DNA from: Escherichia coli O157:H7
GTDB lineage: Bacteria; Pseudomonadota; Gammaproteobacteria; Enterobacterales; Enterobacteriaceae
DNA: 64,000 bases
Strand: one strand, 5' to 3'
NCBI RefSeq assembly: GCF_013167455.1
Contig: NZ_CP038328.1
Positions 42,401 to 48,400 of the stretch are shown piece by piece. The first letter of the stretch is position 1; every line of letters begins with the position of its first letter. Made by a program: the position numbers.

Positions 42401-45400
42401 AAGTAGGACATTTTCATGTCAGGCCACTTCTTTCCTGAGCGGGGCTTTGCTATCACGTTGTGAACTTCTGAAGCGGTGATGACGCCGAGCCGTAATTTGT
42501 GCCATGCATCATCCCCCTGTTCGACAGCTCTCACGTCGATTCCGGTACGCTGCAGGATAATGTCCGGTGTCATGCAGCCACCTTCTGCTCAGAGGCTTTC
42601 TGTTTCAGGAATCCAAGAACTTTCACTGCTTCGGCCTGTGTCAGTTCTGACGATGCGCGAATGTCGCGGCGAAATATCTGGGAACAGAGCGGCAATAAGT
42701 CGTCATCCCATGTTTTATCCAGGGCGATCAGCAGAGTGTTAATCTCCTGCATGGTTTCATCGTTAACCGGAGTGATGTCGCGTTCCGGCTGGCGTTCTGC
42801 AGTGTATGCAGTATTTTCGACAATGCGCTCGGCTTCATCCTTGTCATAGATACCAGCAAATCCGAAGGCCAGACGGGCACACTGAATCATGGCTTTATGC
42901 CGTAACATCCGTTTGGGATGCGACTGCCACGGGCCGGTGATTTCTCTGCCTTCGCGGGTTTTGAATGGTTCGCGGCGGCATTCATCCATCCACTCGGTAA
43001 CGCAGATCGGATGATTACGGTCTTTGCGGTAAATCCGGCATGTACAGGATTCATTGTCCTGCTCAAAGTCCATGCCATCAAACTGCTGGTTTTCATTGAT
43101 GATGCGGGACCAGCCATCAACGCCCACCACCGGAACGATGCCGTTCTGCTTATCAGGGAAGGCGTAAATTTCTTTCGTCCACGGATTAAGGCCGTACTGG
43201 TTGGCGACGATCAACAATGCGATGAACTGCGCATCGCTGGCATCACCTTTAAATGCCGTCTGGCGAAGAGTGGTGATCAGTTCCTGTGGGTCGACAGAAT
43301 CCATGCCGACACGTTCAGCCAGCTTCCCTGCCAGCGTTGCGAGTGCTGTACTCATCCGCTTTATACCTCTGAATCAATATCAACCTGGTGGTGAGCAATG
43401 GTTTCAACCATGTACCGGATGTGTTCTGCCATGCGCTCCTGAAACTCAACATCGTCATCAAACGCACGGGTAATGGCTTTTTTGCTGGCCCCGTGGCGTT
43501 GCAAATGATCGATGCAGAGTGATTCAAACAGGTGCTGGGGCAGACCTTTTCCCATGTCGTCTGCCAGTTCTGCCTCTTTCTCTTCACGGGCGATCTGCTG
43601 GTAGTGACGCGTCCAGCTCTGAGCCTCAAGACGATCCTGAATGTAATAAGCGTTCATGGCTGAACTCCTGAAATAGCTGTGAAAATATCGCCCGCGAAAT
43701 GCCGGGCTGATTAGGAAAACAGGAAAGGGGGTTAGTGAATGCTTTTGCTTGATCTCAGTTTCAGTATTAATATCCATTTTTTATAAGCGTCGACGGCCTC
43801 ACGAAACATCTTTTCATCGCCAATAAAAGTGGCGATAGTGAATTTAGTCTGGATAGCCATAAGTGTTTGATCCATTTTTTGGGACTCCTGGCTGATTAAG
43901 TATGTCGATAAGGCGTTTCCATCCGTCACGTAATTTACGGGTGATTCGTTCAAGTAAAGATTCGGAAGGGCAGCCAGCAACAGGCCACCCTGCAATGGCA
44001 TATTGCATGGTGTGCTCCTTATTTATACATAACGAAAAACGCCTCGAGTGAAGCGTTATTGGTATGCGGTAACGCCGCGCTCAGGCGGCTTTGATAGTCA
44101 TATCATCTGAATCAAATATTCCTGATGTATCGATATCGGTAATTCTTATTCCTTCGCTACCATCCATTGGAGGCCATCCTTCCTGACCATTTCCATCATT
44201 CCAGTCGAACTCACACACAACACCATATGCATTTAAGTCGCTTGAAATTGCTATAAGCAGAGCATGTTGCGCCAGCATGATTAATACAGCATTTAATAAA
44301 GAGCCGTGTTTATTGAGTCGGTATTCAGAGTCTGACCAGAAATTATTAATCTGGTGAAGTTTTTCCTCTGTCATTACGTCATGGTCGATTTCAATTTCTA
44401 TTGATGCTTTCCAGTCGTAATCAATGATGTATTTTTTGATGTTTGACATCTGTTCATATCCTCACAGATAAAAAATCGCCCTCACATTGGAGGGCAAAGA
44501 AGATTTCCAATAATCAGAACAAGTCGGCTCCTGTTTAGTTACGAGCGACATTGCTCCGTGTATTCACTCGTTGGAATGAATACACAGTGCTGTGTTTATT
44601 CTGTTGTTTATGCCAAAAATAAAGGCCACCATCAGGCAGCCTTGTTGTAAATGTTGCAGGTATCAAGTAAGTAATTAGATGGAGCGCCATAAATTATGAA
44701 TTCATCGTTTGTCGGGTCCATCTCCATCTCTTGTCCTATTGCCATTCTTGCGTCAGTGTCGTCAGCGGCGAAGCATAAAACAGCCCACGCACCCATTGTT
44801 TTAAAAAGAACTGCAATTGGCTGTGGTTTTACTGAATTTGCGTTAGCGCGAAAATCACAAATCGCACTTTCATGAAATTCCATATATCACCTCAAATAAG
44901 TGGTTTGCTGCCTAATTTCATTTTCTGGCGACCAACACAAGTCATCTTGCTGTCAGTTGTTTGGATTTACGGTAGCCTGCCGCGTAAAGAGCTACATTTG
45001 GAAGACAAGTTGAGCCTTCATATTTTCTGGTCAACGTTGTCAGTGTTATTACTTCTGCTCTCATTGCTGGTTTGCGTTTGCATTGTAAGACCACTCGTGA
45101 TGGGGTTGGCCTGTGTAGTTTGTCGGAGCTAATCGCCTCCTGACTTTGCAGGTTTGCGCGACGAGCTCTACGGCGAGAAGCTGCGGTGCCTTTAAATTCT
45201 GTTTTTCTGGACATAGATTCCTCCCGAATAAACTTTGGCGATGCAATCTCGAAGCTCCTCCTGAGACGGTTGCTTCGGCATTGCATCCCACAGCTTATGT
45301 GGTTGGGTGATCTGGCTTTTCAGCCACGTAGTCGAGAGTCGACGTTGTTTAAAGAGCCTGCCAGTCTGTTCCATTTGGCTTCCAGCGTCCTGCTGATGGT

Positions 45401-48400
45401 TAAATAGTACGATATGTACTTCACTTGGTCAATACAATTTGTTCTAAAACGGGGCGTTTTTTTACAACGCTTTGTATTTAATAGTATTGTTTTTTAGCGT
45501 GGGTGTATTGCCTCGGCGATGTAAGGAGAGATCAGAATTGCGTTGTTTAGTGAGTTGTATCTATTTATTTTCCAATAAATACAATTGGTTATGTGTTTTT
45601 TTGGGCGAGAGGAAAAGAAAACCCGGCATGGAGGCCGGGTTGATGATTAGCGGTGTGGCCTTGAGCGATAATGCTCACACACATGTTCAAGATTTCCATG
45701 CCTTATCCGTTCATAGGCATTCACATGAACTTCTCGATCGAATTGGTCATTCAAATTGTATGTAGACATCTGTGTTTTCTCATATTGGCGGCAGCCCTAC
45801 AACCGCTTGAAAAAATGTACCAGACGCGCTAAGGTTACATCGCAAATATTGTGTACCTTAACAAGGGCTCCTTTTGGAGGCTCTGGTTAAACAGCATCAA
45901 TGTCGGACTGGGGAGTTGGACATTGTGCTGAATGCTTTTGCATTATTGAGGCCGAACGTAAACCTTCAGAATTGAAGAGATGCGTTCGGCTTCTTCGTTT
46001 GTGATATCGTTAGGAATGCCTTTAATCGTTACTGTAACCCCTGATTCAGGTCGAAGAACTACTGGAAGATCATAGGTATGAAGTGCATTAGCCTTGCCTT
46101 CGACTTTTGTTGGTTCGCCAGTCAAATCTTTTTCCTCACTGGATTCTTTGTCAATCGGAGTGTATGGGATTTCTTCACCAGACTGGAAAGCTACAAACTT
46201 TTTGATTGCACTTTCCATGCGGCTTTTATATGCAGTAATGCTGCTGTCGCTAGGCTTCGGCTCAGTTGCGTTGATGTATCGCTCGGCAAGCTCATTCACA
46301 TCAAGCTGAGTAACATCACCCATTTCCTCTTCTTGGACTACCGTTAAGAGGCGAGCGGATGAGTTTTTTAAATTTCGAGCGGTGGCCTCCTTCATTATGT
46401 TCAGCGACATAAGCTCTTCAAGGAAGTCCTTGAATGCCTGCACGCTAACGTTTGACTTTGCCATTTGCTCTCTCTCTAAGTTATTGACTCAGATCGAGTT
46501 TATCCAGGAATTGATTTGCATGCAAGACTCAAGTCTTGAGAATTTCCGTTCAAGATCCACTCTCAATAAAAAAGGCCGCACCTCTGCGACCTTTCATCTC
46601 CTAAATCTCTTTTCTCTTACCTAAAGAAACAGCAGGCTGGGTCAGCCCTAACAACTTCAAGTGCATCGGTCAGAGAAAGCTCCGTGCTATACAGGTGTTA
46701 TTTCATATCTTTTTGCATCCAATAAATTTTCCATCTGTCCAGAGAGCGGATGCACTTGATTCTTGTTGATGGCAGGACGTTTTTTCACCTGCCTCACCCT
46801 GCCATACAGGACGCTGCTCACCGATATCTATCGTCCGGTCATTGATGTTATAGACAATATCCAGATCATTACGGATATACTCAGATGGCCTTATGCTTTC
46901 AATGAATAGATGAACTTCTTTTTGACCGCTTGATACTCATGGCCATTAAACTCCATCTATCCTCTTTACCCAAACGTCTCTTCAGGCCATTGGCTGGCGA
47001 TAACTTTCCCCACAACGGAACAACTCTCATTGCATGGGATCATTGGATATTGCGGGTTTAGTGGTTGTAGAAACACCTGACCGCTATCCCTGATCAGTTT
47101 CTTGAAGGTAAATTCATCACCACCAAGTCTGGCTATGCAGAAATCGCCGGGCTCAACAGCTTGCTCAGGGTCAACCAGAATTAACATCCCGTCAGGAAAA
47201 CTAGGTTTGGAACCTGTTGGTGCGGTCATTGAGTTACCTTCAACCTCAAGCCAGAATGCAGAGTCACTGGCTTTTTTGGTTGTGCTTACCAATCTCTCCG
47301 CATCACCTTTGGTAAAGGTTCTGAGTTCTGGAGAGAACATCCCAGCCTGAACATGAGAAAAAACAGGGTACTCATATTGTTTTTTAACTGGGGCCGATGA
47401 GTATTCGCCAACAGGTGAAAATGTCCCGTCGTGGTTGAATGATATGTTATCAATACCAAGGTATTTAAACACCACACCAATATCACTAAGAGATGGATGA
47501 CGAGATCCGCGCAACCAGTGTCCAATTCCACCCTGCGTCATACCTAGCTCTTCGGCTAACTTCTCTTGAGTTATGCCGAGCTCTTTCATTCTGGATCTAG
47601 CCAGTTCATACCATTTCATTTTCATGTCCTTATTATTACGCTCTGTACTGGAACCATCCATGCACAATGTGTATTTTTACTTGTATTTGAGAAGTACATA
47701 TTGTATTTTTTTATTCGTGGTTACTATGGAGGGCATATGAGCAACCTACGAAAATATCGAGAGTCACTGAATATCTCTCAAACAACACTTGCTAAGGCAG
47801 TTGGATGCACACAGGGAGCTATCGGACATTGGGAATCTGGTCGTCGCTTCCCAGACCTTAAAACATGCCGTGCTCTTGTTGCGTGTCTAAACAAGTTAGG
47901 CGCAAAAGTAAGTCTTGATGACGTGTTCCCGCCGGAGCACAAAGCCGCTTAATAAGCGGAGCCGCTCTTTGTAACAACGGACATTCGTCCTACGTCGCTG
48001 AAAAGCGAGTCCCAAGATATCTGACCAACTAAGGCCATATGCGTTTCCACGCATACCTTTCAACTAACTATTCACTATTGGAAATCTTAAGAAATGGAAC
48101 GAACAAGTTACAGCAAACTATCACAGCGCGACGTTGATCGCGCAGAAACAGATTTACTCATCAACCTGTCAACGCTTACACAGCGCGGTCTGGCAAAGAT
48201 GATTGGCTGTCATGAATCGAAGATAAGCAGAACGGACTGGCGGTTTATTGCTTCGGTCTTGTGTGCTTTCGGAATGGCATCAGACATCAGTCCGATTAGC
48301 AGGGCTTTTAAGTATGCGCTTGATGAAATCACAAAGAAAAAATCCCCGGCTGCCACCGAGGATTTTAAGCAAATTGATATGCAATTCTGAGGGAATTACT

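Follow-up and report, generated by a model that had tools for sequence, protein, structure and literature searches.

The region at 45310-45479 of the 64,000-nt window (the whole stretch of DNA analyzed) from Escherichia coli O157:H7 (NZ_CP038328.1, GCF_013167455.1) very probably comprises the PL/OL controls and the nutL site of a Stx2-type lambdoid prophage whose immunity is of the VT2-Sakai (Sp5) type. This reading is supported because the position, orientation, operator family, conservation and paired nutR are all consistent with a lambdoid prophage. The sequence features, their enrichment, their conservation and the covariation of the RNA were observed directly. PL, the operators and nutL of this type are already known, and they are ordinary features, since the same ones have been annotated in public phage records since about 2000. 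The immunity-region records AP000422, AP005153, AP005154 and AJ413274 carry putative PL, OL1-3, nutL, tRM, cI, OR1-3, PR, PRM, cro and nutR. In AP000422 (VT2-Sakai), PL (labelled 'putative major leftward promoter'), three 17-bp operators and nutL are marked "putative" at the corresponding coordinates.

A comparison with known lambdoid immunity types, as proposed in an earlier note on this DNA, gave a 100% match to the VT2-Sakai type. Positions 45250-47760 showed 100% nucleotide identity with VT2-Sakai (Sp5), Stx1-converting phage, Stx2 II, Nil2 and others, and these four named phages did not differ from the present prophage within the immunity region. The prophage does not belong to imm-lambda: the lambda operators were unrelated in alignment, and cI matched lambda in the C-terminal domain only. 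For the whole prophage, the best match was Stx2a_WGPS8 (98.3% over 90% of query 39001-64000). The prophage sits downstream of the chromosomal hisG/yeeZ/yeeY region, and the same OL region was found in 235 of 5,426 complete E. coli genomes. Sp5-type immunity controls the induction of Stx-converting prophages, and the exact repressor location is medically relevant because induction drives Shiga toxin 2 production. Our literature search found neither a footprint of the cognate repressor nor a mapped transcription start for PL/OL. The sole binding data found concern lambda cI, whose affinity for the VT2-Sa operators was low, with an apparent Kd of 3.7-6.4 uM (PMC10742460).

The perfect inverted repeat previously noticed at PL, AGTACATATCGTACT at 45420-45406, was confirmed; 11 of its bp fall at the end of the spacer and the other 4 at the beginning of the -10. 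It forms the dyad core (AGTAC-ATATC-GTACT, 45406-45420) of the strandless operator OL1 (45405-45421). Perfect AGTAC-N5-GTACT occurred once in 64 kb against 0.02 expected, and 2 of 100 shuffled sequences contained one. The suggested search for further sites returned no second perfect copy in the window and three more with one mismatch. The four sites with at most one mismatch compare with 0.71 expected, and none of the 100 shuffles reached four. As the earlier note had indicated, related sites lie between cI and cro, with one-mismatch dyads at 47635-47649 and 47693-47707. The remaining one-mismatch dyad, at 39659, was rejected as an operator; it lies inside a 178-aa ORF and fits the chance expectation. 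The proposed operator at PL was therefore borne out as a dyad and not as a single operator, since OL has three. OL2 (TAGAACAAATTGTATTG, 45430-45446) overlaps the -35, and OL3 (AAATACAAAGCGTTGTA, 45463-45479) lies upstream; neither has a strand, and both are annotated as putative operators in AP000422. The dyads over the PL -35 and -10 are related in sequence to the annotated OR3 (47634-47650), OR2 (47660-47676) and OR1 (47692-47708), also without strand. Together, OL1-3 and OR1-3 uphold the idea of an operator consensus for this immunity type, A-R-T-A-C-N5-G-T-A-Y-T.

The six related 17-mers were then ranked by a leave-one-out procedure, in which the matrix used to score each one was derived from the remaining five operators. 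Each ranked between 2nd and 15th of 63,984 positions, with OL1 at rank 3 and OL2 at rank 4. OL3, OR2 and OR3 matched weakly (ranks 8, 9 and 15, respectively), and their exact boundaries were taken from the depositors' annotation. A further candidate, which would be a fourth operator of OL (45577, matrix score 11.5), was placed outside the core operator set because its block of about 105 bp is missing in 683R2 and phi458; in those two, only a few bases separate the OL3 block from the terminator upstream of it. A high-scoring palindrome at 30035 was also discarded, as it falls outside the prophage, in the host chromosome close to hisG.

Conservation was examined in five diverged phages whose cI N-terminal domains are 96.5-100% identical and whose Cro proteins are 98.6-100% identical. 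At OL, 44/51 operator columns were conserved compared to 26/52 other columns (Fisher p = 1e-4), and at OR the values were 44/51 and 36/53 (p = 0.036), although these statistics rest on few independent changes because the relatives are close. The variable operator positions were mostly in the central N5. OL1 was invariant in the relatives save for the central base, OL2 was a conserved block with a variable centre, and OL3 was a conserved block whose flanking linker could not be aligned. The operators thus track the repressor type, being kept with the same cI and Cro while the linkers diverge. Among 58 distinct PL regions, other immunity types each had their own dyad operator at the same position.

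The cI repressor (46966-47619, minus strand) has its own HTH N-terminal domain and a lambda-like C-terminal domain. In a query translation that begins at 47625, its residues 84-219 (numbered 78-213 when counted from the annotated start, 47619) are nearly identical to the C-terminal domain of lambda cI (PDB 3bdn, 8gmu). Cro is encoded at 47737-47952 on the plus strand (71 aa, HTH_3). PRM lies at 47660-47632 (minus) and PR at 47681-47709 (plus). TTGAGA at 47687-47692 was rejected as the PR -35, as it is not kept in relatives; TTG[T/C]AT at 47681-47686 was conserved, in agreement with the depositors' PR. Alternatively, the dyads might be operators mainly for Cro or another phage regulator, with a different or longer cI motif and a misplaced 17-bp annotation. 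The poor fit of OR2 and OL3 to the dyad and the conservation beyond the 17-mers, such as ATTAAATAC at OL3 and aaccatccatgcacaa beside OR2, point in this direction. However, the recognition helices of Cro (TQGAIGHW) and cI (TQGGIGHW) are nearly alike (TQG[G/A]IGHW), so the two proteins would be expected to use common sites, as they do in lambda, 434 and P22. In addition, the sites are placed where cI must act, over both hexamers (-10 and -35) of PL and of PR and directly next to the PRM -35. We consider this explanation improbable, and operators bound by cI remain the preferred reading.

The PL promoter (45432-45404, minus strand) consists of the -35 TTGACC (45432-45427), a 17-bp spacer (45426-45410) and the -10 TACTAT (45409-45404). 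As first reported, this arrangement can be read directly from the sequence; it faces N and was also listed by a consensus scan. Calling it near-consensus was generous, because the promoter match by itself is not above chance in this AT-rich region: the hexamers agree at 9/12 positions (5/6 and 4/6), no better than background, and the scan found 6 such matches in 44800-48200 compared to 5.9 in shuffles. These counts would suit a view in which the dyad is a chance palindrome on self-complementary GTAC or a restriction-type site, the hexamers are AT-rich background, and the true PL lies elsewhere; the chance-like dyad within the coding ORF at 39659 is in line with it. However, the rarity of the perfect dyad in the window and the clustering of related sites at OL and OR only argue against it. 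Approximately 20 variants of the immunity type also keep AGTACA[T/C]ATCGTACT invariant, whereas the linker next to it, which joins the -35 to OL1, is hypervariable. Furthermore, the consensus scan gave no alternative minus-strand promoter between the terminator at 45620-45641 and N. The sequence 7 nt past the -10 is also the same as the lambda PL transcript start. A chance origin is therefore highly improbable.

This leader start, CATCAGCAGGACGC (45398-45385, minus strand), is conserved, and the lambda PL leader begins with the identical sequence; in lambda, transcription from PL starts here. It is common to many immunity types, and the 58 distinct PL regions end at it. The +1 of PL is predicted to be the A at 45397, 7 nt past the -10. 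In relatives, the spacing of the PL hexamers showed no indels, and the -35 was TTGACC, TTGACT or TTGATC. As expected for a lambdoid PL, the promoter leads into N and has N on one side and the end of the cI operon on the other. The intrinsic terminator at 45620-45641 (minus strand), annotated in AP000422, ends the PRM-cI operon upstream of OL3 and was kept in 6/6 same-immunity phages, whatever their upstream cargo.

The boxA-like element and the GAAA-loop boxB hairpin described after PL are both legible in the sequence and are parts of nutL (45359-45310, minus strand), annotated as a putative nutL in AP000422. The boxA GCTCTTTAA lies at 45357-45349 and the extended boxA GCUCUUUAAACAA at 45357-45345; nutL GGCUCUUUAAACAA at 45358-45345 and nutR CGCUCUUUGUAACAA agree with the known form CGCUCUUUA(ACAA). 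The boxB UGGCU-GAAA-AGCCA (45326-45313) has a 5-bp stem and a true GAAA tetraloop. An additional hairpin that the earlier note had not listed, GUCGA-CUC-UCGAC (45343-45331), lies between boxA and boxB. A second site, nutR (47962-48011, plus strand), was found just past cro, with boxA GCUCUUUGUAACAA, the spacer hairpin GGAC-AUUC-GUCC and boxB UCGCU-GAAA-AGCGA. Compensatory changes between nutL and nutR were found in both hairpins.

A covariance model, R1, was built from 38 related nut sites and had exactly two matches in the window, nutL with 66.1 bits (E 2.5e-16) and nutR with 59.5 bits (E 1.6e-14). In the 38 distinct sites, the two-hairpin structure was 96.3% paired compared to 78% in shuffles (0/500), with compensatory changes at 6/10 pairs; 4/5 pairs of the spacer hairpin covaried. 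The boxB loops were GAAA, GCAA or GUAA, and the stem exchanged G-C for C-G and U-A for C-G. The minimum-energy fold, which pairs boxA with the boxB 3' arm around the spacer hairpin, was rejected in favor of two separate hairpins because its helix was 81% paired in the 38 relatives and is broken at each point where they differ in sequence. Only 18/38 relatives can pair the base preceding boxA with the boxB arm. Rfam has no nut family, and the sole near-significant match there was a partial cIII thermoregulator. The GNRA boxB with covariation, the two copies after PL and after cro, and N downstream of nutL are the features of a nut site. That the hairpins instead act in attenuation or termination, or mark the N message for RNase III processing, is the least probable of the explanations considered: the minimum-energy fold and a terminator scan, which picked out the spacer hairpin on the other strand, favor it, but neither hairpin is followed by a U-tract on the transcribed strand, the 81% pairing of the rival helix falls below that of the two-hairpin form (96%) with its compensatory changes, the second copy is at the expected place of nutR, the known boxA consensus is matched, the loops are of the GNRA kind, and a gene for an N homologue lies downstream.

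We strongly infer repressor binding, a transcription start and antitermination at PL/OL/nutL, and the following mechanism can be proposed. In the lysogen, cI dimers would bind the three related OL dyads that share the consensus, and OL1 (on the spacer and -10), OL2 (on the -35) and OL3 (upstream) would jointly keep RNA polymerase off PL. Self-cleavage stimulated by RecA, pairwise cooperativity and looping between OL and OR across about 2.3 kb are probably lambda-like, because the cI C-terminal domain is near-identical. After induction, transcription from PL would begin at about 45397, and approximately 40 nt into the transcript the polymerase would pass boxA, then the spacer hairpin, then the boxB with its GAAA tetraloop. 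N would be translated from 45214, and its arginine-rich motif would bind boxB. N and the Nus factors would then allow termination-resistant elongation through the leftward operon (cIII, kil, gam, bet, exo).

The order of terminator, three operators, PL, leader, boxA, boxB and N is the same as in lambda, as are the positions of O1 (spacer and -10) and O2 (-35) and the leader start; the cI C-terminal domain is almost identical. In contrast, the operators are ARTAC-N5-GTAYT and not the TATCACCGC type of lambda, and the cI N-terminal domain has diverged from that of lambda. In nutL, the spacer forms a hairpin of 13 nt and the loop is the tetraloop GAAA; in lambda, the spacer is short and the loop is the pentaloop GAAGA. 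The centre-to-centre spacings also differ: OL1-OL2 is 25 bp and OL2-OL3 is 33 bp, compared to 24 and 20 bp in lambda. At OR, OR1-OR2 is 32 bp and OR2-OR3 is 26 bp. Lambda-style pairwise cooperativity at OR is thus not assured, given 32 bp for OR1-OR2 against 25 bp for OL1-OL2, and the closely spaced pair is OR2-OR3 rather than OR1-OR2. It is conceivable, though rather unlikely, that the switch is wired unlike that of lambda although the repressor C-terminal domain is lambda-type. If so, OR2-OR3 as the close pair would alter which sites bind cooperatively, and the control of PRM.

The N antiterminator gene (45214-44942, minus strand) encodes 90 aa (Pfam N_peptide 3.4e-32; PHROG 271), and its arginine-rich motif, 12-ASRRRAR-18, is close to RSRRRER of H-19B N (PMC3526286). 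The nut sites of the H-19B, 933W and 24B system (Neely & Friedman 2000, cited in PMC3202840; PMC3526286) share with the present nut the order boxA, ACAACG, spacer hairpin, UACG and boxB. The 24B nutL has the same layout, its boxA-boxB spacer likewise being extended and folding into a separate hairpin. The present site has the spacer hairpin of the H-19B-type two-hairpin nut but not its boxB loop and N specificity: the boxB loop is a GAAA tetraloop, compared to a GACAA pentaloop in 24B nutL, which scored only 19.7 bits with model R1. The N/boxB pair may be an RNA-recognition variant that uses a true GNRA tetraloop instead of a pentaloop. In immunity, meaning cI and the operators, the present prophage and 933W are unrelated. 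The N protein of 24B resembles the present N in the arginine-rich motif at the N terminus and in the C-terminal CLPNVA.YAAGYRKSKQLTAR, but it has 127 aa and is 40% identical.

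The minus-strand sequence across the early leftward promoter PL was read directly as gtaTTGACCaagtgaAGTACATATCGTACTATttaaccATCAGCAGGACGC. It contained a -35 hexamer TTGACC (45432-45427) and a -10 hexamer TACTAT (45409-45404), separated by a 17-bp spacer. The perfect dyad AGTAC-ATATC-GTACT (45420-45406) overlapped the spacer by 11 bp and the -10 by 4 bp, an overlap that the earlier note had pointed out. That note had also called PL near-consensus; however, the hexamers matched only 9 of 12 consensus positions, and a promoter-consensus scan of 3.4 kb returned 6 sites of the same quality versus 5.9 in shuffles. 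The PL hexamers on their own are not above chance. The dyad is more than chance: it occurred once in the 64 kb versus 0.02 expected, and a search for further AGTAC-N5-GTACT sites found four copies with at most one mismatch in the window versus 0.71 expected, a number reached in 0 of 100 shuffles. Two of the three other copies sat between cI and cro, where related sites had been noticed before.

The region 45250-47760 was 100% identical to VT2-Sakai (Sp5), Stx1-converting phage, Stx2 II, PA-series phages and others, and near-identical to Nil2, 2851 and 1717. The VT2-Sakai record, AP000422, marks as putative PL (45404-45432), three 17-bp operators and nutL, together with the PRM terminator, cI, OR1-3, PR, PRM, cro and nutR; the annotation of AP005153 is much like it. 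Public records already carry this annotation, and the feature itself is of a textbook type. Both the original observation and its interpretation as PL, OL and nutL were right, with minor corrections to the operator number, the promoter match and the structure of nutL. An integrase lies at 36826-38004. The prophage as a whole best matched Stx2a_WGPS8, and among 5,426 complete E. coli genomes, 235 had the OL region.

A single operator had been proposed at PL. Its palindrome was confirmed but not the count, since OL holds three putative operators, annotated in AP000422 at 45405-45421, 45430-45446 and 45463-45479. A symmetrised matrix was built from the six annotated 17-mers at OL and OR, and the window was scanned with it. 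All six operators were within the seven best positions, and with leave-one-out matrices each ranked 2nd to 15th of 63,984. All 12 half-sites ended in AC, and the operator consensus was A-R-T-A-C-N5-G-T-A-Y-T. Centre spacings were 25 bp (OL1-OL2) and 33 bp (OL2-OL3) at OL (45413-45471), and 26 bp (OR3-OR2) and 32 bp (OR2-OR1) at OR (47642-47700), the last compared with 24 bp in lambda. In left-to-right order, the OR array repeats the OL array directly and does not mirror it. The perfect palindrome AGAACA-TTG-TGTTCT (30035-30051) had an operator-like matrix score but was rejected as it lies outside the prophage, in a host intergenic stretch between hisG and yeeZ. From ORF reading, we take the left part of the window (hisG, yeeZ, yeeY) to be E. 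coli chromosome.

We then compared the window with five diverged phages, 683R2, phi458, 2B8, ev017 and 2G7b, in which the cI N-terminal domain was 96.5-100% and Cro 98.6-100% identical. In the PL alignment, three conserved blocks coincided with OL1, OL2 and OL3, while the linker from the -35 to OL1 varied (ccaagtg, ttgata or tcttgta) and the OL2-OL3 linker varied or was unalignable over its whole length. Conserved columns made up 44/51 of operator versus 26/52 of other positions at OL (Fisher p = 1e-4), and 44/51 versus 36/53 at OR (p = 0.036). Nine of the 14 variable operator positions fell in the central N5. Between the terminator and OL3, the phages 2B8, ev017 and 2G7b share with the window a block of about 105 bp (45500-45612) that includes a weak operator-like site at 45577; 683R2 and phi458 lack this block. 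The sole binding study found for the VT2-Sa operators used lambda cI, which is not the cognate repressor, and measured weak binding with an apparent Kd of 3.7-6.4 uM (PMC10742460). A literature search for a footprint with the cognate repressor or a mapped start site found neither.

A scan of viral contigs yielded 58 distinct PL regions, all ending at a common leader, CATCAGCAGGACGC (45385-45398, minus strand), at the start of the PL transcript. Every immunity type among them, including lambda-, P22-, 933W- and 434-like-looking ones, had its own dyad at the same position. In about 20 variants of the window's type, AGTACA[T/C]ATCGTACT was invariant. The leader was common to at least 10 different immunity types. 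Because the lambda PL transcript starts with an identical sequence, the predicted +1 is likely the A at position 45397, which lies 7 nt downstream of the -10; this base is A or G in relatives. In 683R2 and phi458, a window-type operator set was joined to a lambda-type nutL exactly at the leader. At the level of sequence, this joint shows that the immunity and N-nut modules can swap independently of each other, and the leader marks the exact joint for their exchange.

Downstream of PL, both the boxA (GCTCTTTAAACAA, 45357-45345) and the GAAA-loop boxB (TGGCT-GAAA-AGCCA, 45326-45313) noted earlier were read directly on the minus strand. A spacer hairpin, GTCGA-CTC-TCGAC (45343-45331, minus strand), had been missed; TACG separates it from boxB. 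The layout of nutR (47962-48011, plus strand) was the same, with compensatory changes in the spacer stem (GGAC/GTCC versus GTCGA/TCGAC in nutL) and the boxB stem (TCGCT/AGCGA versus TGGCT/AGCCA). A pattern scan of viral contigs, with boxA, ACAACG and TACGT fixed and only the hairpins free to vary, gave 38 distinct nut cores. Their spacer stems were GGTGA/TCACC, GTCGA/TCGAC or GGAC/GTCC, and their boxB loops GAAA, GCAA or GUAA except for one GACAA. In the aligned cores, the two-hairpin structure was 96.3% paired versus 78.0% in shuffles (0/500) and at most 50% with partners slid, and 6 of 10 pairs had changed on both sides. A covariance model built without the window's own sequences matched the window exactly twice, at nutL (66.1 bits) and nutR (59.5 bits), with the next best match at E > 1. 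In the minimum-energy fold, boxA instead pairs with the 3' side of the boxB stem and so encloses the spacer hairpin (nutL 45313-45358, minus; nutR 47963-48008, plus), which covariation does not support. This fold recalls the "alternative NUT RNA structures" of which the title of Neely and Friedman (2000) reportedly speaks.

The two-hairpin layout is the same as that described for H-19B nutR (PMC3526286). It is also found in 24B nutL, although with a GACAA loop, and the 24B N protein has 127 aa and is 40% identical to the N of the window. Owing to these 24B differences, the nut site here is, judged by sequence, a sister type of the H-19B/24B kind and not of the same specificity. The N gene itself (start 45214, minus strand; 90 aa) follows a GGGAGGA ribosome-binding site and matched Pfam N_peptide at 3.4e-32.

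The cI gene (46966-47619, minus strand) encodes a chimeric repressor with an HTH domain of its own and a C-terminal domain nearly identical to that of lambda cI (PDB 3bdn, 8gmu), at residues 78-213 when numbered from the annotated start (47619), or 84-219 in the query translated from 47625. cI and Cro have the recognition helix TQG[G/A]IGHW in common, which fits their acting on the same operators. Several records start cI at ATG 47661, and OR3 would then be coding. Since all differences among relatives in 47620-47661 (minus strand) are non-synonymous (S->F/C/N; D->G/N; E->K), this interval looks non-coding. The PRM -10 AATAAT (47637-47632, minus strand) would put the start at the A of ATG 47625, suggesting that the cI message is leaderless, like that of lambda.

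Two minus-strand ORFs of unknown function, of 40 aa (45647-45769) and 173 aa (45943-46464; PHROG 2602), hold the slot of lambda rexAB between cI and the terminator. Same-immunity relatives differ in this slot: 2B8 has an NYN-domain protein there, ev017 has two other ORFs, and in 683R2 it is empty. Rfam Lambda_thermo, the cIII thermoregulator, was matched in part at 44000-44021 (minus strand; 27 bits); the match was ended by the edge of the searched stretch and adjoins a cIII-like ORF at 43844-44008.
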